Assembly (NCBI GenBank): GCA_003193925.1
Contig: PSPG01000012.1
Location: 1-64,000, forward strand
Source of the DNA: Candidatus Thalassarchaeum betae
Lineage (GTDB): Archaea; Thermoplasmatota; Poseidoniia; Poseidoniales; Thalassarchaeaceae
Length of the DNA stretch: 64,000 nt
Direction of reading: 5' to 3'
Within the stretch, counting starts at the first letter, position 1; the number at the start of each line of letters is the position of its first letter. The position numbers and the translations under genes were made by a program. Of this stretch, positions 42,364 to 53,731 are shown in pieces. Under the pieces are notes generated by a model. That model was not told where the DNA came from. It searched no databases and was given only the letters and a program-made list of their open reading frames with translations.

Positions 42364-43158
42364 TCAAGAACCCTGCACATCGTCTGAGATGTCATCGAGC
42401 AGCTCTCCGATCGCTTCCTCGACCGCTTCCTGAATCTCCTCGGCGTCAGCGTCGGCGCTGTAGTTCAGCGAGCCGTCGTCCTTGGTGTCCGCACGCACGT
42501 CATCGACGCTCCTGCCCACCGCCTGCGCTATCTCGCCCTGCATCTTCCTGCGCCGCTTGCGCTTGCGGCGGACCCTCCTGATGGTGCTGGTGATTCTCAG
42601 CAGGATCTCAAGTATGGCCAGCAGCACGAGGCTGCTGAAGAAGGACCTGGCCAGCTCGGGCAGGTTGTCCATCAGGGCCTCGAACTCGTTCCACTGGACC
42701 GAGGTCGAGCCGACTAGGAAGACACCGAGGACGGCGAACGGAAGCATCTTGGCGACATCCCTCGAGAGGTCCTCGGTCCAGTAAGCCAGTATGCGCACGG
42801 CGCCGACCACCGAGGTCGCGATGAGCGCGTTCCTCGCATGGTCCGAACTGTCCGAGAGCAAAGTGAGGATGACCGCGAGGACGAGTGTCCAGAAGGCGAT
42901 GAGGATGGGTATGACCAGGATGTACTGAACGACGAAGAGGATGCTCCTGAGGTACTTCTTCACCTTGCCACCGAAGTCGTCGGCGTACTTGCTCAGGTCG
43001 AGCGTGAGCAGGTCCTTCTTGGCCAGCACCCGGTAGAACATGAACACGAATCCCGAGTACACGGCGATGGCGATTATCGCCATCAGCGTCGGGTAGGTCT
43101 CCCTGCCGAAGTCCTGTATCAGGGCGAGGAGCTCATCGCTCGTCCGAGGTATCTCCAC
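42364..43158 (-). CDS. Hypothetical membrane protein
   Basis: About 5 TMs, RILAYWTEDLSRDVAKMLPF motif, basic then acidic tail. Start set at GTG. Confidence 0.7.
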   Translation of the reverse strand: MEIPRTSDELLALIQDFGRETYPTLMAIIAIAVYSGFVFMFYRVLAKKDLLTLDLSKYADDFGGKVKKYLRSILFVVQYILVIPILIAFWTLVLAVILTLLSDSSDHARNALIATSVVGAVRILAYWTEDLSRDVAKMLPFAVLGVFLVGSTSVQWNEFEALMDNLPELARSFFSSLVLLAILEILLRITSTIRRVRRKRKRRRKMQGEIAQAVGRSVDDVRADTKDDGSLNYSADADAEEIQEAVEEAIGELLDDISDDVQGS

Positions 43159-43196
43159 AGAGCCCACACGCCGGTGCGACTCAAGGTAGTTGCGCC

Positions 43197-43742
43197 CTAC
43201 TGTGGGCTGAATGGCCGGGCGCATTTGGGGCACCTGGTAGGCGCGCTGACCCTGACTCTCTGCCAGGTGTGCCCGCAGTTGCCGCAGATCCACTGCCTCT
43301 CCGGCAGGCTGTCGAGGACCTCACGCCGCATCCTCCTCAGCACCGGCGACCGAGCCAGGCTGGGTGCCGGCGCGATCTGCTTGACCAGCTCGGCGTGGTT
43401 ACCGCCGTGCGCGATCAACCCGGCAGCGTGCAGCAGTTCGTGCACGAGGGTGTGCCGGAACAGCACCTCGTCCTCAGCCAGGATCCGGTTGAGGCCGATT
43501 GTGACCGAGCCTGGTGCGACCCTCAGCCGGCGCCGCCGGAACAGTTCGTGGTGGTCGTACTCGAAGCGGGTCATCCCCAGGCGGCTTTCGTCTGCGGGCA
43601 GCCACTCGAGCCTCAGGTGCTTGCCGAGGTGACGCAGGAACGGAGCCTCGTCCTTGCTCAGCACGGCCTTGAGATCATCGAGCAGGCCGTCGGGCATCTC
43701 GGGGCCTCCCAGCACCCCGCCTCCATCGCTCCCCGCGGTCAT
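43197..43742 (-). CDS. SprT-like zinc metalloprotease with C-terminal Zn ribbon
   Basis: TLVHELLHAAG..H (HExxH), CGNC..CPKC. Confidence 0.7.
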   Translation of the reverse strand: MTAGSDGGGVLGGPEMPDGLLDDLKAVLSKDEAPFLRHLGKHLRLEWLPADESRLGMTRFEYDHHELFRRRRLRVAPGSVTIGLNRILAEDEVLFRHTLVHELLHAAGLIAHGGNHAELVKQIAPAPSLARSPVLRRMRREVLDSLPERQWICGNCGHTWQRVRVSAPTRCPKCARPFSPQ

Positions 43743-43765
43743 GGCCCAGCGTGCCCCCATTCTCC

Positions 43766-43771
43766 TTAAAT
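43766..43771 (+). promoter_or_regulatory. Putative TATA box of tRNA-Ala
   Basis: TTAAAT about 26 nt upstream of the tRNA 5' end in GC-rich context. Confidence 0.45.
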
Positions 43772-43796
43772 GGCCGTCGTCGGTGGCCCGCTCACT

Positions 43797-43870
43797 GGGC
43801 GTGTGGCGCAGCATGGAAGCGCGCTTCCTTGGCATGGAAGAGGCCCCGAGTTCAAATCTCGGCACGTCCA
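43797..43870 (+). tRNA. tRNA-Ala (anticodon GGC), CCA not encoded
   Basis: GGGCGTG/CACGTCC acceptor with the G3:U70 Ala determinant, CTTCC-TTGGCAT-GGAAG anticodon arm, GTTCAAATC T-loop. Confidence 0.93.
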
Positions 43871-44020
43871 CTTTCTCTTCCTAGGATGCCGTCATGCGTA
43901 GGCTCGCAACCCCGCGATTCTGGTTAATGGGAAAGTCAATGGGGTCACCACCCCCCCAAACTGCACTACGGTGCGCATTCTACATTGATACTAAATAGTC
44001 TATACTTGCGCGCACGACGT

Positions 44021-46276
44021 ATGAAGTCTAAGCTAACAGCAACACTTCTTTGCACGCTAATGATTGTATCAACTCTTGCCGGTTGTCTCGGCGGGGATGA
44101 TGGAGACGACGACCCAGACCCAACGATGGTCATGGGATGTACCTACGCGGACGCGACCAACTACAACGCCGACGCTACGATGGACGACGGATCATGTGAG
44201 TATGCGCCCGGTGAGGAGCCAGTTCTTGGCTGCACCAACGCGGGCGCTACGAACTACGATTCCGCCGCCACTCGTGACGACGGCTCGTGTACCTACGCTG
44301 AAACCGTGATGGGCTGCATGGACCCGGCTGCTAACAACCATAACGCAGATGCCGAAGACGATGACGGTTCTTGCGACTATGGTATGGCTCAGGGAGACAT
44401 TATGGCAGCCTACTCGGCTGGCGACATGTCCTTCGAGGAGGCTCTGTACGAGCTCGAGAAGTCGAGAAAGTGCCGTGAGCAGGGTTCCAACAACCCCTGT
44501 GAGATAGTCGAGATGTCGATTGGCGACGCCTCGACAATCGACCCCCACGATGCGTACGACTCGGCATCCGGAGACGTCATTGAGCAGGTCTACGACACGC
44601 TCTACCGCTATGCGGGTGACGGAAGCGGAAACGCCATCATCGAGCCCCGCCTCGCCACCGGCTATTCAGTCAGCGCCGACGGTCTGACCTACACGTTTGA
44701 TCTACGAGATGACGTGTACTTCAGCAACGGTGACCTGATGGAGGCCTCTGACGTTGTGTACTCATGGTGCCGCGTACTTGGCTACGGCTCGCCCGACAGC
44801 CACGTGGGCTGGATCCTAGAGCAGAGCTTCGACTGCAACGACGCTGATGGTAACCACAGCGACACTGGCGGCGAAAGTCTCACTGTCAACAGCGCGACCT
44901 CTTTCTCGGTCACACTGTTCGCTGAATCCTCGGCGTTCATCTCGACGATCGCCTACACGGTCGGCGCTGTGATCAACGCCGAGCTGTGCGAGGCCAACCG
45001 CGTCGATGCGGGCGGTGATGGCGACGACTACTGCCACGAGTGGATGGACGAGGCTCCGTTCGGAGCTGGGACCAACGCTTATCTGGTACAGTCTTGGGTC
45101 CGTGAGGACCGACTCGTCCTCGTGCCGAACTGGATGTACTGGGAGAGCGGTGATTACAACATCAACCGCCACACCGTGTCCATAGTTACCGAGGCCACGA
45201 CAAGGCTGCTCGCCTTCACCGACGGTGAGGTCGACTTCGGCAGCATCAACATCGAGGATCTGGTGAACTTCTGCGACAACCTGGAAGACAAGCCTAACGT
45301 ACAGTCCAAGGCAGGATACATCTGCAGTTACAGGGAGACCTTCACTACGACCCTGTCGGCCTTCAACCTACACCCGAAGGCCCTTGATGCAGGAGAGGAC
45401 AACACCAACACTGGTGCTAACTCGTCCCTCATCCTCAACCACGACTGCAGCGGCGACGGCACCAACGACTGCAGCGTCATGGAGGTAGGAGCGGTCCGAG
45501 CGGCCATCTCCTACGCGTTCGACTACGAGACCCACCGAAGGGACACGTACGACAACTCGCTGGCACCGCAGTACGGCCCGATCCCGACTGGCTTCCTGTA
45601 TGCGGATACCCAGTACGAGGTCTTCACCTACGACCTGGCCTACGCTGAGCAGCTCCTAGAGGACGCTGGCTTCATCCGCCAGTACGACTGCTCCTCGCTG
45701 AGCCGCAGCGGTGCGGCAGACGTGGTCGCTGAGGCAGACAGAGACGGCACCGAGTGCCGCCTGCCGAACATCCTGGGCGTAATGGCCAACGAGGGCAACG
45801 ACTACCGAATCGCCATGGCCGGCCAGCTCGCTGAGGCCCTGGGGACCATCGGAGTCGCCACCGCCGGAGATGCCAAGCCATGGGCAGAGTACCTGACCAT
45901 GTACTACACCAGGACATGGGACATCAGGTTCAGCGGATGGGCCCCTGACTACCTCGACCCCGACAACTACTGGTCGCCGTTCGCCGGCGGTTACTCCATC
46001 GGCGGCGACGCCTATGGTACGGGTTACGAGAACGCGGACGTCAACGCCGCCCTGCTCATTGGCAGGACCTCGCAGGACGACGCTACGCGCGAGCAGGCGT
46101 ACGTCGATGCCTTCGAGGCCTGGATCCTAGATCCCAACATGATCATCATTGGACAGTACAACGGCGTAGGTGTCAAGCACGACGACATCTGCAGCCCGGA
46201 CTGGGTCGCCATTGGGTCCGCCCACTGGTTCGACTACGACAAGCTGCCAATGGTCAAGTCGGCTCCTGCTGATTAA
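44021..46276 (+). CDS. Peptide/nickel ABC transporter substrate-binding lipoprotein (family 5)
   Basis: Lipobox-like LAGC, three Cys-rich repeats, TIDPHDAYD..VYDTLY..PRLATGYSVSADGLTYTFDLR..FSNG, VRAAISYAFD, GWAPDYLDPDNY. Confidence 0.9.
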   Translation: MKSKLTATLLCTLMIVSTLAGCLGGDDGDDDPDPTMVMGCTYADATNYNADATMDDGSCEYAPGEEPVLGCTNAGATNYDSAATRDDGSCTYAETVMGCMDPAANNHNADAEDDDGSCDYGMAQGDIMAAYSAGDMSFEEALYELEKSRKCREQGSNNPCEIVEMSIGDASTIDPHDAYDSASGDVIEQVYDTLYRYAGDGSGNAIIEPRLATGYSVSADGLTYTFDLRDDVYFSNGDLMEASDVVYSWCRVLGYGSPDSHVGWILEQSFDCNDADGNHSDTGGESLTVNSATSFSVTLFAESSAFISTIAYTVGAVINAELCEANRVDAGGDGDDYCHEWMDEAPFGAGTNAYLVQSWVREDRLVLVPNWMYWESGDYNINRHTVSIVTEATTRLLAFTDGEVDFGSINIEDLVNFCDNLEDKPNVQSKAGYICSYRETFTTTLSAFNLHPKALDAGEDNTNTGANSSLILNHDCSGDGTNDCSVMEVGAVRAAISYAFDYETHRRDTYDNSLAPQYGPIPTGFLYADTQYEVFTYDLAYAEQLLEDAGFIRQYDCSSLSRSGAADVVAEADRDGTECRLPNILGVMANEGNDYRIAMAGQLAEALGTIGVATAGDAKPWAEYLTMYYTRTWDIRFSGWAPDYLDPDNYWSPFAGGYSIGGDAYGTGYENADVNAALLIGRTSQDDATREQAYVDAFEAWILDPNMIIIGQYNGVGVKHDDICSPDWVAIGSAHWFDYDKLPMVKSAPAD
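44135..44380 (+). repeat. Three tandem about 28-aa Cys-rich modules (GC.D/N..A.NY...A..DDGSC.Y)
   Basis: GCTYADATNYNADATMDDGSCEY / GCTNAGATNYDSAATRDDGSCTY / GCMDPAANNHNADAEDDDGSCDY. Confidence 0.85.
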
Positions 46277-46418: not shown

Positions 46419-47603
46419 ATGAAGCTGCACGAGTTCGTAGCTCGCCGCCTGCTCCTGCTGATCCCTGTGATGGTGGGAGTCACGGTCCTGACATTCACCA
46501 TCTCTCATCTCATCCCCGCAGATGCCGCCGCCGCACAGTGTGGCGACAAGTGTGGCGTCGTCGTTGATTACACCGAAGATGGTGATCCCATAACCGCTTA
46601 TGCGGCCAACAGGGAAAGGCTGGGGATGAACGAACCGCTCACCACGCAGTTCAGGCTCTACGTGACCCATCTCTTACAAGGCGACTGGGGGGAATCGAGC
46701 ACCTATCACCGTCCCGTCGCAGATGTGGTGAAAGACGCGGCCCCGATCACCTTGGAGATGTCCTTCTTCGCTCTACTCATAGCCTATCCCCTGGGGATCT
46801 CCCTCGGCATCCTCAGCGCTGTTCGGCAGGACCGGATGTTCGATCACATCTCGCGATTCTTCGCCATAGCGTTCGTCAGCCTGCCGATATTCTGGTTCGC
46901 GATGGTCCTGCAACTATTGTTCGCTACCCAAGCCCCCGAATCAGGAGTTGGAGGTATCTGCGACCCGCTCACGAAGTGGCTCCCGCTCGTCCCCGACACG
47001 GATGGAGGCTGCTTCCCTATCTACGGGAGGCACGACCCCAGCCTCACGTACCCCGAAGACGGATTCGCCTCTTTCTACCCTGCAGGAGGGACCGGGTTCC
47101 ACCTGATCGACAGCTGGTTCGTGACCGACGGGAAGCTGGCCACACTGCCGGCCAAGTTTGGCTCCAACCGGCTGCTCTTCAAGGACACCCTGTTGCACCT
47201 AGCACTGCCCTGCGCATGCCTGGGCATCGCCTCCTCCGGTTCCCTGCTGAGGTACATGCGCGCCAGCCTCCTCGAGGTCCTACACGAGGACTACGTGAGG
47301 ACTGCCCGCGCTAAGGGACTCTCTGAGTTCAGGGTGGTCATAGTACATGCATGCAGGAACGCTCTGGTCCCGATAGTCACCATCCTCGGATTCTCAATCG
47401 GCGGAGCGATAGGCGGCGCTGTACTGACTGAGACAATTTTCGCCTTCAACGGCATGGGCCGGGTGGCTGTCAAGTCAATCCAGTACCTCGATTTCCCCGT
47501 CATAATGGGTGTGACGCTGATTACTGCGGCCATCTTCCTGCTGTCCAACCTCGTTGTGGACATATTGTATGCAATCATAGATCCAAGGGTGAGGCTTGAA
47601 TGA
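46419..47603 (+). CDS. Peptide ABC transporter permease DppB/OppB
   Basis: RRLLLLIPV, GDWGES, P.FWFA, HLALP, EDYVRTARAKGL, HACRNAL, ETIFAFNGMG, DILYAIIDPRVR. Confidence 0.93.
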   Translation: MKLHEFVARRLLLLIPVMVGVTVLTFTISHLIPADAAAAQCGDKCGVVVDYTEDGDPITAYAANRERLGMNEPLTTQFRLYVTHLLQGDWGESSTYHRPVADVVKDAAPITLEMSFFALLIAYPLGISLGILSAVRQDRMFDHISRFFAIAFVSLPIFWFAMVLQLLFATQAPESGVGGICDPLTKWLPLVPDTDGGCFPIYGRHDPSLTYPEDGFASFYPAGGTGFHLIDSWFVTDGKLATLPAKFGSNRLLFKDTLLHLALPCACLGIASSGSLLRYMRASLLEVLHEDYVRTARAKGLSEFRVVIVHACRNALVPIVTILGFSIGGAIGGAVLTETIFAFNGMGRVAVKSIQYLDFPVIMGVTLITAAIFLLSNLVVDILYAIIDPRVRLE

Positions 47604-49357
47604 GGGGCTGGGACGAAGGCAAAGAGGATCGCAAGGAAAGCCTGAGGAGGCTTGTCGAGGCTCTATCTCAATCCAGGAGCGACATTTCGCGGAGCTGGAG
47701 GATATACCGCCGGTCCCTGCTTGCAGTAGTAGGGCTCATGCTGGTAATGTCCGTCGTCACGGTCTCGATTTTCGCCGACGATATAGCAGTCGAGCACCCC
47801 TACCGGAACCTGCAGGACACGGAGGACCTCTGGACCATCGACTACGAGCCCCGGAGGGCCCACCCGTTCTCCGAGGAGTGCGACTGGCACGAACAGTCTA
47901 TCACCGTGGACACCAGATCCCCCCTCTTCTCGGAGACCGTAGTCGCCGTGTCAGACAACAAGGTAGGAGACGACAACAAGTACTACCGCGACACCCTCTC
48001 TGTAATCGAGCTCCTCAGCCTGAAGGATGACCTGGGCTACGGCCTCAACATCTCATTGATTAGCATAGACCCGAACAACTCCTCTATCCTCATCGTGTCC
48101 GAGGAGCTCTACAACAACTCGTCAATGACAGGCAAGGTCTGGCTCACCTACGAGTTCGAAAACGAGGCCATGCACATCTGGTGGATGCCGGAGGGCTACG
48201 AACATTGCATCTTCGGAACCAACGATCAGGGGCAGGACATGTTCAGCAAGGTCCTGTACGGATCCCGTGTCTCTCTGAAGATCGGAATCACCGTTGCCAT
48301 GCTCACAGTGACCATAGGGACCATCGTCGGCAGTGTGAGCGGCTACTTCGGCGGCAGGGTGGACGAGGTAATCATGAGGATCTGTGACGTCTTCTTCGCA
48401 ATACCCGGGCTGATCCTCGCCATGGCCTTCGTCACGGCGATGTCTGCGATGACGAGCCTCACTATGCCAATGTGGTTGGGGATCCTGATTCCGATATTAT
48501 TCCTGGCCGTGGTTTTCAGGTCATACCTGGCATCAACCATCGCAGGAGACCGAATCAGCGACCAAGTGATGGGGTCATTAATGCGAAACCGGAACATATT
48601 CCTAGGTTTATTCTTACTCTTCTTCTTCGTTGGCTTGTTCCCCGGTGCTTCGTGGTCAGACCTCTTTGGAATCTCAGACAGCCAGGGATGGAGAATCGGT
48701 GCTGCCACGGGTATAATCCTCATCCTCGGAATGTTAGCGCTAGCAGACAAGCGCTTCATCGAGAAGACAAGCTTCGATGGCGCCGGGGAGCGTCTGAGCA
48801 AATCCCTCGATTGGACAAACCCGTGGAGGTACCTCACACTGAGGACCGTGGCGATCTTCGTTGCTGCAGTAGTCATCTATCGCTTCTCAGGTAGCCCCGG
48901 GGATGAGATAGTCGTGATCAAGGACTTCGACCGACTCTGGAAGATACAGGCCGCCCTGATTTTCACCGGATGGCCAGGCTATGCCAGGCTGATCAGGGGA
49001 CAGGTTCTGTATGTCAAGGAGATGACATTCGTCGAGGCAGCTAGGAGCGTGGGCGCTCCTTCGGGGAGGATAATGTTCAGGCACATCCTTCCCAATGCTT
49101 GGGCCCCGCTCCTCGTCGCCTTCACTCTCGACATCGGAGGGACCATTCTGACAGCGTCCGGGCTGTCGTTCATCGGACTGGGGGCTGCCCCGGGCACAGC
49201 GGAGTGGGGCATCCTTGTATCGGAGAGCAGGCGGTACTTCGTCCCCGACCCACACCTGATGCTCTTCCCCGGACTCGCTATCGCAGTCACCACTCTCGGT
49301 TTCAATCTGCTCGGTGACGGGATCAGGGACGTAGTGGACCCCAAGAACAGGAGGTGA
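47600..49357 (+). CDS. Peptide ABC transporter permease DppC/OppC with extracytoplasmic and extra TM insertions
   Basis: FGTNDQGQDMFSKVLYGSRVSL, GYFGGRVDEVIMR, WPGYARLIRGQVL..FVEAARSVGA, HILPN, FNLLGDGIRD. Confidence 0.9.
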   Translation: MRGWDEGKEDRKESLRRLVEALSQSRSDISRSWRIYRRSLLAVVGLMLVMSVVTVSIFADDIAVEHPYRNLQDTEDLWTIDYEPRRAHPFSEECDWHEQSITVDTRSPLFSETVVAVSDNKVGDDNKYYRDTLSVIELLSLKDDLGYGLNISLISIDPNNSSILIVSEELYNNSSMTGKVWLTYEFENEAMHIWWMPEGYEHCIFGTNDQGQDMFSKVLYGSRVSLKIGITVAMLTVTIGTIVGSVSGYFGGRVDEVIMRICDVFFAIPGLILAMAFVTAMSAMTSLTMPMWLGILIPILFLAVVFRSYLASTIAGDRISDQVMGSLMRNRNIFLGLFLLFFFVGLFPGASWSDLFGISDSQGWRIGAATGIILILGMLALADKRFIEKTSFDGAGERLSKSLDWTNPWRYLTLRTVAIFVAAVVIYRFSGSPGDEIVVIKDFDRLWKIQAALIFTGWPGYARLIRGQVLYVKEMTFVEAARSVGAPSGRIMFRHILPNAWAPLLVAFTLDIGGTILTASGLSFIGLGAAPGTAEWGILVSESRRYFVPDPHLMLFPGLAIAVTTLGFNLLGDGIRDVVDPKNRR

Positions 49358-49361
49358 GAAG

Positions 49362-51047
49362 GTGTCGGATAACTTGCTCGAGATCGAGGGTCTCAGAGTC
49401 CACTTCGACACTCTGGACGGGCCAATTGAGGCTCTCCACTCCGTAGACCTGAAGGTCAAGCAGGGCCAGATAATGGGGCTGGTCGGTGAGTCGGGGTGCG
49501 GGAAGTCAGTCACTTCACTGGTGACGATTGGTCTGGCTACCTGTGATGTCGACGAGGGCAGCGTGAAGTACGAAGGCGAGGAAATGCTGTTCAGTGTTTC
49601 AGAGCACGACAAGAAAATCCAAGACGTCTCAGGACGGATAACCGTGCTCGGGGTATTGGCATCGATAGTAGCGGTTTTCTGGACGATTCTGATAAACCCC
49701 ATTCAGGGCATTACCCTCCTTGTCATATTCTTGTTCGTGGCAATAGTCTCGTGGATTTTTGGGTTTATCGCTAAGAGCGAATACCGACGCCATCAGAAGT
49801 TCATGCAATCGGTGCGCGGCAACAAGATCAGCATGATCTTCCAGGAGCCCATGACGGCCCTCAACCCGCTTTACACGGTGGAGAAGCAGATCTCCGAGGT
49901 GATGCGCGTGCACGACAGGCTTGTCGAGGCCGAGACTCCGCGTTACGTCAGAGTCGGTCAGGCACTTGTCAGCCCTGCCACCCTCATCCGCGACGCCTTT
50001 TCCTCACGGCCACAAGCGTCGATTGCCACCTCCTCCGTTCTCGCCTTTGTCCTCGTCGCCCATCTGTCTGGCTTCGCCGACTCCGCTGCAGAGGCAGTCA
50101 CCGCTCCCTTCGTCTTCGTCTTCAAGGATCTCTTCTGGGTCCTCATCGTCCTCCTTAGCGGATATCTTGTGAATTCACGGGCACAAATCGAGGCGTTGAA
50201 CGCCTTGTACCGGCCTCTAAAGTACGCCGCCCCTCAGGTTCCTCTTGTCTCCGCCGTGGCTTTGGTCATCTTCCTGATGCTCTGGATGCCGCTCTCCGCT
50301 TTCCTCGGGATGGCTGTAATCAGCACTCTCCTGGCCCTGCCGGCGATCATAGTCCTGGACTATCTGAGACTTGACCCCGCGCACACCCGACAGGTCATCG
50401 GACTCCTCGAGGAGGTCAGGATTCCGGATCCGAGCGCAGTTGTGAAGATGTACCCGCACGAACTCTCCGGAGGGATGCGTCAGAGGGTGATGATCGCCAT
50501 GATGATGGCTTGCGAGCCCAAACTGCTCATCGCCGACGAGCCGACAACCGCCCTCGACGTTACAATTCAGGCCCAGATTCTACAGTTGATGCGAGACCTG
50601 CGCGACGAGAAGGACACGGCTATCCTGCTTATCACACACGACTTGGGGGTTATCGCCGAGATGTGCGACGCAGTCACCGTGATGTACGCCGGGGCGGTGG
50701 TCGAGACAGGCAGTATCGAGGATGTTCTTTCTAAACCTCGGATGCCCTACTCAATCGGCTTGCTTCACAGCATTCCAACGATCGATGAAGAGGCTGGTCG
50801 CAGGGAGGTACTGCCTATCATCCCGGGCCAAGTCCCGGATCCCAACCTACACTTCGATGGTTGTAGGTTCCACCCTCGCTGCCCGTTCGCGGACGCAACA
50901 TGCATCTCAACTCCGCCACCGATGAAGGAGGTCGAACCCGGTCACTTCGCAGCCTGCCACCACACCAATAGGACGGAGAACGTTGCAGACGTGCAGGCCT
51001 CATTCGACGTTTTCGCAGCCGAGTACGATTTGGAAGGAGTTGCCTGA
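49362..51047 (+). CDS. Peptide ABC transporter ATPase DppD/OppD with two hydrophobic insertions
   Basis: [47 protein letters not shown]-terminal CRFHPRC..C..ACH; 561 aa versus about 330 typical. Confidence 0.9.
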
Positions 51048-51048
51048 G

Positions 51049-52113
51049 ATGCCAGATGACAGCAAGACCGACGAGGTCCTCATAGAGGTCGAGGGAATGA
51101 GGAAGTGGTTCCCGATCAAGAGCGGTATGCTGACTACGGTGAAGAGCCACGTCCGCGCAGTTGACGGGGTCGATCTGCAGGTAATGCGAGGTGAGACCCT
51201 CGGGATCGTCGGCGAGTCGGGTTGCGGTAAGACCACGCTGGGACGAGTCATACTGGGACTCACCCATATGACCGAGGGGTCGGTCCACTACGCCGGAGAG
51301 GACATCCGGATGATGACAAACAGAGACCTCAGGAGGAGGCTCCAGATTGTGTTCCAGGACCCCGGAGGCTCGATGAACCCGAGGATGTCGGTGCGATCCA
51401 TAGTGGGGGAGCCACTCCAGGTGAATGGAATGGCCCAGGGTGCCGAGTTGACGCAGAGGGTAGCTGATTTGCTTGATTCCGTGGGCCTCAAGCGCGAGCA
51501 CATGAACAGATTCCCCCACGAGTTCTCCGGTGGACAGAAGCAGAGGATCGCCCTAGCGAGGGCACTATCTCTGGACCCTGAGTTCATTCTCCTCGACGAG
51601 CCAACCAGCGCATTGGACGTGTCCGTTCAGGCCCAGGTTCTGAATCTGCTCGAGGAGATAAAGGCGAAGCACGGCCTCACTTTAGTCTTCATCACTCACG
51701 CACTCAACGTCGTCAACCACATTTGCGACAGAGTCGCAGTGATGTACCTCGGAAAGATCGTCGAGATTGCCAATACGAACGACCTGTTCAGTAAGCCAGC
51801 CCACCCATACACGCATGCTCTGATGTCGGCTATCCCAGAGCCCTCACTAGAAAAGGCCGCTAGGAGGAGGGTAGTTCTGAGTGGTGACGTACCCAGTCCC
51901 ACAGACCCTCCTCCGGGATGCAGGTTCCACACCCGTTGCCCCATCGCTGAGGAGGGGCTCTGCGATGTCGAGGAGCCGAAACTTGAGTCCATCGGTGAAG
52001 GCCATGAGGTCGCGTGCCACTTCCCACTGGGTCCCGGGATGAAACTCCCAATGCTAGACGATGCCGAGAACCCCTCTGAGGAAGACCACGGGCCGAAGAC
52101 GATCGTATTCTGA
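51049..52113 (+). CDS. Peptide ABC transporter ATPase DppF/OppF
   Basis: [56 protein letters not shown]. Confidence 0.94.
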
Positions 52114-52122
52114 GGGACACCA

Positions 52123-52497
52123 ATGGCTGAGAAGGAATCCGACACAGACGGAACCGAGGCCACTCCCCCTCCGATGCACGACAAGAAAGAGGAGGCAGAG
52201 GCCGCCTTCTGGAGACTGAAGAAGGCCTCTGACAAGAGCAGAGAGGAGCGAGTCAAGCGAGTTCTGGCTCAGGAGGGGGAAGGGCTTCTGACTACACTCG
52301 GCAGAGTGGTGTACATTTCGGCGTGCATAGTGTTCGATGGCGTGGTGCTGCTGCAAGTTCCAGCCGGCATGGGCAGGACCTTAGCCGCCTGGTCCCTGTA
52401 TGTGGTCTTGCTAGTAGTCGCCATCAAGCTACAGCACGACCTCTACGAGAAGTGGTTCGATGTCGACATCAGTCCGATCGACTTTGATCGGCAGTGA
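52123..52497 (+). CDS. Hypothetical membrane protein (2 TMs)
   Basis: Follows dppF by 9 nt; charged N-terminus and two hydrophobic helices. Confidence 0.6.
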   Translation: MAEKESDTDGTEATPPPMHDKKEEAEAAFWRLKKASDKSREERVKRVLAQEGEGLLTTLGRVVYISACIVFDGVVLLQVPAGMGRTLAAWSLYVVLLVVAIKLQHDLYEKWFDVDISPIDFDRQ

Positions 52498-53731
52498 TCG
52501 GGAAGCGCTCAGTGGCGATTCGCTCGAAGCGCCTGAACGAAGGCACGACGATACCGATTATCGTGGCGGCGACCATGATCGACACCGCCACAACAAAGGC
52601 CGCCTCGAGCCCCAATCTCTCGATCATCATCCCGCCGAGGACCATAGCGGGTGGAATCAGGATGAAGGAGCCGATTGCATCGATAGAGTTGACCCGGCCA
52701 CGCAGATGCTGCTCTACGCTGTCCCCTATCGTCGTGTTCCAGATGACTCCCAACACCCCCACGAGGAGGCCTTGGAACAGCGAGATCAGCAGAATGAGCG
52801 CGAACCAGGGCACGAACACGAACAGCAGGTCCAACCAAGCGGCGAAGCCGACGGTGACGTAGAATACCGTCCCACGTGAGCTCTTCGGAATCGGATTACT
52901 GCCTGCATAAAGGGCACCCACGGCGGCTCCGATCGGGAAGACGGCGCCCCAGATTCCGTAATAGAAACCATTCCAGCCGTTATTCAAGGCGATGGAGGGG
53001 ATGCCGACATCTACTATCGCAGCACCAACGTGGAATGCCATGAACACGAGGATTCCGACGAACAGCCAAGGCTGGCTGCGAGTGAAAGACAGAGCATGAC
53101 TCATCTCCGACTTGAAGTCGGAATCCTCTTCCTCATCCCTGACGATTGGGACCTCCTCCATGTTGTACAGCACATACGCACTGACGAGGAAGGTGACCAT
53201 GTCGATGAAGAGCGCGACTTCGATGCTTGAATAGGTGATTATTGCACCACCGATCAGACCACCGAGCGACCACGAGATAGTACGAATGGAATTGAGCAAA
53301 CCGGTCGCAGAGGCCAGGATCTCCTCGTCTACTAGGTCTGGCACAAGGGCCTGAGTCGCGGGTATCGAGAAAGCTGTAGACGCTCCCATCATCACGGCGG
53401 CGAAGAGCAACACCTTCAGCACGGGGAGGCCGATGAGGAGGAGGCTGATGAAAAGGAGAGCGAAGCTTGCCTGTACATAGTCGGTGTACAGCGCGACGGT
53501 CCGCCTGGGTATTCGGTCGACCACCATCCCGCCAACTGTCAGAAGGGGCAGGTGAGCGACGAAATATGCGACTCCGAACCACGCGAACCACACCGGTCCG
53601 GCTAGCTCATTCACACGCCATCCTGCCGCGACCATGAAGCCGGCTCGGCCGACCTTGCTAACGCCGTCCCCAATCAGGAAACGCCGCAGGTCGCGGACTT
53701 CCCAAGCCTCTCGGAGACCCATTGCCAACAT
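52469..53731 (-). CDS. MFS transporter (macrolide-efflux/EntS-like)
   Basis: About 12 TMs, GGMVVDRIPRR, PATQALVPDLV, LRGRVNS. Confidence 0.88.
   Translation of the reverse strand: MLAMGLREAWEVRDLRRFLIGDGVSKVGRAGFMVAAGWRVNELAGPVWFAWFGVAYFVAHLPLLTVGGMVVDRIPRRTVALYTDYVQASFALLFISLLLIGLPVLKVLLFAAVMMGASTAFSIPATQALVPDLVDEEILASATGLLNSIRTISWSLGGLIGGAIITYSSIEVALFIDMVTFLVSAYVLYNMEEVPIVRDEEEDSDFKSEMSHALSFTRSQPWLFVGILVFMAFHVGAAIVDVGIPSIALNNGWNGFYYGIWGAVFPIGAAVGALYAGSNPIPKSSRGTVFYVTVGFAAWLDLLFVFVPWFALILLISLFQGLLVGVLGVIWNTTIGDSVEQHLRGRVNSIDAIGSFILIPPAMVLGGMMIERLGLEAAFVVAVSIMVAATIIGIVVPSFRRFERIATERFPITADQSRSD

Follow-up and report, generated by a model that had tools for sequence, protein, structure and literature searches.

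A DppD-type ATPase of Candidatus Thalassarchaeum betae with predicted transmembrane helices inside its nucleotide-binding domain

We found in Candidatus Thalassarchaeum betae a DppD-type ABC ATPase whose nucleotide-binding domain (NBD) contains predicted transmembrane (TM) helices; this architecture is real, no published or solved example of it was found, and the insertion of the helices into the membrane is a prediction. NBDs are the conserved soluble part of the ABC superfamily, and membrane helices spliced into the middle of an NBD break that rule. The gene lies in a window of 64,000 nucleotides (contig PSPG01000012.1, positions 1 to 64,000), which is the whole stretch of DNA analyzed. On balance, models and comparisons lead us to favor a working importer of the peptide type whose DppD would be integral to the membrane, its extra helices anchoring or bracing it at the rim, probably together with an insert in the permease DppC and a small protein encoded after dppF.

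Results

Two hydrophobic inserts in an intact ATPase

The canonical DppD/OppD is a cytosolic protein of ~330 aa without a TM segment, whereas the DppD analyzed here has 561 aa and six hydrophobic segments by sequence. An earlier note, made from the sequence alone, had claimed that the NBD motifs are intact despite two hydrophobic blocks, and all of them were located in the correct order, namely Walker A (GESGCGKS, aa 42, position 49485), Q-loop (FQEP, aa 160), LSGG signature (LSGGM, aa 368, position 50463), Walker B (LLIADE, aa 388), D-loop, and H-loop (H426). The Fe-S cysteines C501/C507/C514/C532 correspond to E. coli C284/290/297/315, and oligo_HPY (PF08352) was detected above its cut-off in the C-terminus. 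The scores against the NCBIfam OppD/DppD equivalogs were below the curated cut-offs (NF007010, 309 versus 575 bits; NF008246, 284 versus 541), which we attribute to the inserts splitting the match; the insert-free DppF was also under its own cut-offs.

Three DppD blocks (residues 5-76, 148-188, and 340-537) aligned to the contiguous residues 4-76, 83-123, and 127-322 of M. tuberculosis OppD (8j5q), indicating that insert 1 adds ~65 aa and insert 2 ~148 aa. The working boundaries (Table 1) agree with those of the earlier note, which had placed about 70 aa with two TM-like helices before the Q-loop and about 155 aa with about four before the signature. In Kyte-Doolittle plots with 19-residue windows, six windows reached 1.8-2.9 in DppD, two of them in insert 1 and four in insert 2, compared with zero in DppF. 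The maximum at these regions was 1.33 in 78 DppD-type and 80 DppF-type domains from 80 bacterial DppD loci, a set that came from a generic-motif genome scan (1/64 parts) and was used for controls only. Similarly, the spacing from Q-loop to signature was 208 in DppD versus 60-63 in the bacterial controls. A Pfam search of DppD gave no match to a TM-domain family; the hydrophobic helices sit inside the NBD.

Insert 1 is AT-richer, as had been noted (GC 0.47 versus 0.57-0.58), and insert 2 is not (GC 0.60). Base composition is therefore weak evidence of a foreign origin for insert 1 and does not support one for insert 2, and a tblastn search for a donor within the own genome found none (best E 0.12 or worse).

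Table 1. Features of the dpp operon, with positions in the window
Feature	Position	Strand	Description
DppA/OppA-type substrate-binding protein (family 5)	43985..46276	+	763 aa from first TTG; Pfam SBP_bac_5, E 5.5e-51
DppB permease	46419..47603	+	394 aa; Pfam BPD_transp_1 and BPD_transp_1_N; NCBIfam Opp2B/DppB best, below cut-off
DppC permease	47600..49357	+	585 aa, 9 hydrophobic segments; Pfam BPD_transp_1
DppC insert	48455..48934	+	~160 aa, four predicted extra TM helices; outward-facing loop of permease core
DppD/OppD ATPase	49362..51047	+	GTG start, 561 aa, no internal stop; intact ABC motifs, C-terminal four-Cys Fe-S domain
Insert 1	49590-49799 (aa 77-146)	+	Between post-Walker A strands and Q-loop strand; working boundaries
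Insert 1 TM helices, predicted hairpin	TM1 49638-49694, TM2 49710-49772	+	Hydropathy; 5-aa outside turn, Lys/Arg-rich inside flanks
Insert 2	49923-50378 (aa 188-339)	+	~152 aa, helical subdomain; working boundaries
Insert 2 helices, predicted	Amphipathic 49941-50006; TM 50016-50069, 50106-50168, 50238-50291, 50301-50360	+	
DppF ATPase	51049..52113	+	354 aa, ordinary; Pfam ABC_tran and oligo_HPY
124-aa two-TM protein	52123..52497	+	Charged N-terminal helix and predicted TM hairpin

Predicted topology and fold of the inserts

Across 36 two-insert proteins, TM1, TM2, TM5, and TM6 showed a mean Kyte-Doolittle value (KD) of 1.9-2.3 with charged residues near zero, and TM3 and TM4 were weaker and more variable (mean KD 1.6 and 1.2). 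On the two inside flanks of hairpin 1, Lys/Arg average 3.1 and 5.1 per sequence. Outside turns measure 3-5 aa, except for the TM3/TM4 loop with 9-12 aa. The loop that joins TM4 to TM5 on the inside has no net positive charge (2.5 Lys/Arg versus 3.7 Asp/Glu). A simple hydropathy scan of insert 2 counted 2-5 helices among members, so that, given the weak TM3 and TM4, the count of six may fail in some of them.

An AlphaFold model of DppD from a 110-sequence alignment (pLDDT 94, pTM 0.84) superseded one from 10 sequences that was weak in the core (pLDDT 68); AlphaFold models no membrane. Insert 1 was modeled as helices 81-110 and 113-137 (pLDDT 95-98), and insert 2 as helices 194-215, 217-236, 239-269, 273-308, and 311-334. 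In a superposition on E. coli DppD (8z1v_C), the model covered 321 of that chain's 323 residues (Z 37.9, rmsd 2.3 Å, 43% identity), indicating that the inserts loop out of an undisturbed ABC fold, and Z ranged from 37.6 to 38.9 against eight DppD/OppD chains. About 230 residues of the model have no counterpart in the E. coli chain, and no solved chain among the top matches covered the insert helices, the whole-model searches being filled by NBD matches.

E. coli DppD pairs with DppB, not DppC, and K243 of DppB forms a salt bridge with E114 of DppD (PMC12136057, in the part available). This E114 maps to the Glu of QI-x-E, which is E179 here, and insert 2 begins 9 residues later, so that its site (site 2) faces the membrane. 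By the general layout of the ABC fold, the site of insert 1 (site 1) would face the membrane as well. Both inserts are predicted to be transmembrane, each with an even number of helices and with its ends in the cytoplasm. A complex prediction of DppD, DppF, and the 124-aa protein scored 0.00 and gave no answer, which counts neither way.

The dpp operon and its companion genes

The dppABCDF operon, with its family-5 binding protein, two permeases, and second ATPase, is the sole peptide-type importer locus in the 1.48-Mb genome. DppA has Cys-containing repeats and one hydrophobic segment, the N-terminal anchor (aa 17-35), and DppB retains the RTARAKG coupling helix, the element that binds DppD in E. 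coli. The best NCBIfam matches for the substrate class were all far below cut-off; from the family alone, the substrate would be a peptide, although nickel and further solutes are also handled by binding proteins of family 5.

An enlarged DppC and a small 2-TM gene had been pointed out beside DppD in the earlier note, and both recur in the relatives. DppC could be read in 37 of 59 loci and in this locus. Its insert was present in 25 of the 25 with DppD insert 1 and in 0 of the 13 without, and the core-motif spacing was 187-236 residues in the former and 33-47 in all 13 of the latter. This co-occurrence lies within one clade, so it counts as one event and not as independent support. In two short-insert operons (L039:3715-6819, − strand; L040:6018-8321, + strand), the DppC frames of ~1030 and ~770 aa are extended before the permease core in place of the four-helix insert. 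A TM window was found in DppF in none of the loci examined; the insert was always on DppD.

The 124-aa protein matched no family in Pfam or NCBIfam. An alignment of 35 sequences showed nine invariant residues and a near-invariant Asp (D72) in the first hairpin helix, and the protein is more conserved than the DppD inserts. Its gene occurs in 55 of 401 genomes of the class, 54 of which also match DppD/F; in the 55th it adjoins a dppF truncated at a contig end. Wherever a locus holds it (39/39), the gene lies directly 3′ of dppF, in short-insert and two-insert operons alike, and it was not found in 43 genomes of the MGIII type described below. Judging from these sequence data, the protein is likely an accessory subunit of the importer.

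A small ORF of 2-3 helices right after dppF was observed in archaeal-type operons with soluble inserts (L234:4444-4812 and L260:4854-5246, oriented coordinates). Around the operon, an upstream SprT-like gene is syntenic in 21 and a downstream MFS gene (window 52469-53731, − strand) in 27 of 59 relatives' loci; the upstream region (window 42364-43871, − strand) also includes a 309-aa membrane gene at 42364-43293, which gave no Pfam match.

Assembly support

The insert junctions, which the earlier note had marked for checking, were analyzed with assembled contigs, not raw reads, from four DNA runs that carried no flag as a potential source. One such contig spans 48991-51611 with zero differences and a second spans 49399-50810 with 7 substitutions and no gap; all four junctions are bridged by these contigs. 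RNA-library contigs, which show presence only, not expression level, and with DNA carry-over uncontrolled, cover the dpp operon in relatives; one of 839 nt begins in the ATPase core, crosses insert 1, and reaches insert 2. A second dpp operon in one relative (L034, G011:C37) has frameshifts in dppA, dppD, and dppF, reflecting decay or sequencing error.

Conservation and range in Poseidoniales

At E ≤ 1e-30, 99 of the 401 genomes of the class matched a DppD-type query. The fetched loci yielded the 36 complete two-insert DppD proteins, including this one, from its own family (Thalassarchaeaceae, which we take to be MGIIb) and one genus of a second family of the same order; not counted were the frameshifted copy in G011:C37, genes cut by contig ends, and one D-F fusion protein. 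A homologue of the same order carries the NCBI label Candidatus Poseidoniales. The earlier note had asked whether the inserts are conserved in homologues, and the layout proved to be kept in 35 Poseidoniales homologues under purifying selection. The spacing from Walker A to Q-loop is 115-121 in 36 of 36 proteins of two families, that from Q-loop to signature 193-289, and insert 2 ranges from 144 to 238 aa. Five insert residues are invariant in all 36 (P205, W308, P310, L337, and D338), and the residues shared by 75% or more of the proteins are predominantly Pro, Gly, Trp, Leu, and Ala.

Where dS was usable, dN/dS was ~0.06-0.67 in the inserts versus ~0.02-0.08 in the core and below 1 in every pair, several distant pairs with saturated dS being excluded; for TM5-6, comparing this genome with its two nearest relatives gave ~0.1. 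No part of DppD is less conserved than the inserts, and the middle of insert 2 varies widely. This pattern fits inserts that are constrained but loosely, as lipid-facing helices would be; the selection pattern and the conserved Pro/Gly/Trp/Leu/Ala are better matched by structural lipid-facing helices than by a channel or binding site.

The operon is patchy, being present in about one-third of the family genomes searched (51/165, judged by the small gene, with many genomes incomplete), and the DppD gene tree does not track genera. Together, these observations suggest transfer or loss of the dpp operon.

The standard four-Cys pattern is retained in 26 of the 36 two-insert proteins and altered in 10. 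Replacement of the Fe-S domain by the anchors was considered as a general cause and rejected, since the four cysteines are kept in those 26 and in 34 of 35 Marinimicrobia proteins; 7 of 10 hairpin-bearing MGIII-type DppD are without the C-terminal Fe-S domain. At L086-L093, L111, L112, L040, L098, and L099, both ATPases together show a variant in place of the standard motif, of the C-x-x-C ... C-x-x-C type in DppD and C ... CPCC in DppF, possibly a different metal site. At L116:1411-4110 (− strand; G119), the end of dppC and dppD form one 899-aa open frame ending at the contig edge, which is a fusion or an error.

Inserts at the same loops in other lineages

In a core-only tree (FastTree), four short-insert proteins, which have a single-hairpin insert 2 and no insert 1, were sister to the 36 two-insert proteins (support 99/98). 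Other Thermoplasmatota hold hydrophilic coiled coils, Cys-rich modules, or basic amphipathic helices at the same two sites; the maximum KD of these soluble inserts is 1.04 at site 2, which often ends in a basic amphipathic helix. A family labelled Poseidoniia, which we take to be MGIII, carries at site 2 a 70-aa hairpin of its own, alongside relatives free of inserts. Because such close relatives lack any insert, anchoring is not needed for the DppD family in general. In this MGIII-type family, dppB and dppC are fused (750-815 aa; L081, L082, L083, L084, L085, L095, L113, L114, L117).

A metagenome scan by spacing pattern, covering one insert length band, listed 120 of an estimated 150 stretches; 119 of those listed were parsed, with 85 hydrophobic and 34 soluble inserts. 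Sixty of the stretches listed form a bacterial-type group with the signature FSGG and fixed spacings (133-134 and 141), and a hairpin is found at site 1 too in 37 of the 38 with Walker A in view. Six of the seven clusters of this group that were looked up carry the NCBI name Marinimicrobia. The one permease pair scanned there was YejB/YejE-like, of ordinary length and without a DppC insert, and no small ORF follows dppF in the Marinimicrobia loci examined. A 64% GC metagenome contig (L291), whose DppD has a hairpin at site 2 only, branches beside the Marinimicrobia group.

Marinimicrobia form a separate branch in the core tree, in which the three hairpin groups need three changes. In AU tests, grouping all three in one clade was rejected (p 0.0001), whereas neither of the pairs tested was (p 0.24, 0.14). 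Profile comparison of the inserts between lineages gave probabilities of at most 13%, with controls up to 11%, and has little power, as it also fails to link the long and short insert 2 of Poseidoniales (1-2%). More than one origin is the simplest reading of these sequences, with three origins unproven. A stepwise route is likely, in which soluble or amphipathic inserts would have given one hairpin at site 2, followed by insert 1, the expanded insert 2, and the DppC insert.

A hairpin in LivG of the same genome

LivG of this genome has a 79-aa hairpin at the position of site 2 (L354:7060-8085; G000:C7:109059-110084, + strand). It is present in 14 full-length members among 15 listed of a 23-member cluster, and the exact protein occurs on 88 contigs. 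Conversely, the hairpin is absent from 29 other LivG loci measured, and no match covers it in 20 congeners. By sequence comparison, it is a recent, separate gain at the same site. The Liv operon (L354:3-7063) encodes a multi-domain binding protein of >1000 aa and a fused LivH-LivM permease of ~1300 aa with ~19 hydrophobic segments.

Discussion

The importer resembles E. coli DppBCDF/OppBCDF (8z1v, 8z21; PMC12136057) and M. tuberculosis OppABCD (8j5q) in operon order, ABC fold, and the four Fe-S cysteines, and shares with the E. coli system the two residues that form the coupling salt bridge, Glu in DppD and Lys in DppB. However, the E. coli and M. tuberculosis ATPases are cytosolic domains of ~325-335 aa without inserts, unlike DppD here, and the available part of PMC12136057 describes neither extra DppC helices nor a small 2-TM gene for E. 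coli. Thermoplasmatota DppD/DppF have inserts at the same two positions, but these are hydrophilic. Marinimicrobia (SAR406) DppD resemble DppD here in having hydrophobic hairpins at both sites, but they are ~490 aa long, with one hairpin per site and inserts not detectably homologous. The long Mycoplasma OppD/OppF (NCBIfam NF043079) have a profile length of 561. In the ESM Atlas, only generic ABC clusters were found, with the insert region under 0.9, and the neighbors of DppD include Mycoplasmatota clusters of 570-599 aa. The extra length of the Mycoplasma OppD/OppF is presumably a soluble insert.

Fused TMD-NBD proteins such as MacB, type IV exporters, and DppC-DppD fusions also combine an ATPase with membrane helices in one chain, but in these the domains follow one another along the chain and the helices are the transport domain; in DppD here, the ATPase fold itself is interrupted by helices, and the operon has its own permeases. 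Early proposals that the helical domains of HisP and MalK enter the membrane are not known to have been borne out by later structures. A full-text literature search, with subscription journals mostly uncovered, found no description of TM helices inside an ABC NBD, nor of this operon. Within the searches made, nothing indicated that the inserts are not TM, lack read support, or belong to an already described family, the points on which the earlier note had thought its reading might fall. Its proposal of an undescribed system has to be revised to a remodeled known importer. In Marinimicrobia, the ATPase hairpins come without a DppC insert and, in the loci that were read, without the small gene. 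Of the roles it had suggested, the best fit is scaffolding or anchoring; a second substrate path is hard to reconcile with almost uncharged helices, outside loops of 3-12 aa, and a variable insert 2, and the data speak neither for nor against sensing.

In the reading we favor, the RecA-like core would bear insert 1 as a single hairpin and the helical subdomain would bear insert 2 as an amphipathic helix and two hairpins, both inserts starting and ending in the cytoplasm. The insert helices would flank the groove holding the DppB coupling helix, with the six TM helices at the lipid-facing rim bracing DppD against the permease rather than carrying substrate. They would probably form an outer belt jointly with the small 2-TM protein and the four additional helices of DppC, and transport would follow the normal DppABCDF cycle. 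As E. coli DppD pairs with DppB and not DppC, contact between the DppD and DppC inserts stays a proposal.

Alternatively, insert 2 may act as a regulatory lever, which we regard as the main rival, possible but clearly the less probable reading: seated on the rotating helical subdomain, it would couple ATP turnover to the state of the membrane (thickness, pressure, or lipid) or to the small 2-TM partner. The helical subdomain of E. coli DppABCDF rotates ~20 degrees between states (PMC12136057, in the part available), which is in line with a lever. So are the use of site 2 in every lineage found, LivG included, the occurrence of the insert always on DppD and never on DppF in the loci examined, and the small protein, with its hairpin Asp and a conservation higher than that of the inserts. 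However, the insert helices lack conserved residues of a polar or ligand type, no similarity was detected between inserts of different lineages, and the small gene was found neither in the 43 MGIII-type genomes nor after dppF in the Marinimicrobia loci examined.

It is rather unlikely that the inserts are a tolerated accretion, in which bilayer-adjacent loops would accept insertions that drift to hydrophobic hairpins and are locked in without function. Insert 2 does vary from 144 to 238 aa, the 79-aa LivG hairpin is missing from 29 other LivG loci and uncovered in congeners, in other archaea these loops accommodate coiled coils and Cys-rich modules, and the permeases of this lineage gain extra segments too. 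Against this, two families share a fixed insert 1 spacing of 115-121, all 36 proteins have P205/W308/P310, no pair with usable dS reaches a dN/dS of 1, and the Marinimicrobia spacings (133-134, 141) are likewise fixed. Nevertheless, neutral additions once locked in could look alike, so this conservation is compatible with accretion too.

A second membrane pathway or an extracellular sensor built from the DppD inserts, the DppC insert, and the small protein is very improbable. Although twelve extra predicted helices in one operon, co-inherited in the two-insert clade, could provide one, the outside loops are 3-12 aa, TM1, TM2, TM5, and TM6 are almost uncharged, the inserts are the least conserved part of DppD, and the Marinimicrobia hairpins occur with ordinary-length permeases. 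An assembly artefact or a decaying dppD, to which the frameshifted second copy in one relative (G011:C37) might point, is refuted with near certainty by the spanning contigs, the 35 further complete in-frame homologues, and purifying selection.

Beyond this operon, a broader reading that we offer tentatively, as possible rather than probable, is that ABC importer ATPases have repeatedly turned into integral membrane proteins in marine heterotrophs, through helical-subdomain hairpins that would act as a membrane lever linking the ATPase cycle to the bilayer or to a dedicated small membrane subunit, an undescribed mode of regulation. The lineages concerned would be Poseidoniales, MGIII-type archaea, and Marinimicrobia and, separately, LivG of this species. 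Peptide and amino-acid transport proteins are reported to be abundant in marine Group II archaea, which are abundant and uncultured (PMC9723583, in the part available). The proteins form a natural series from no insert through an amphipathic insert and one hairpin to six helices, and this recurs in a bacterial phylum and a second ABC family. With this series and its recurrence, one can test how membrane anchors arise on a soluble motor and whether assembly or coupling changes with them.
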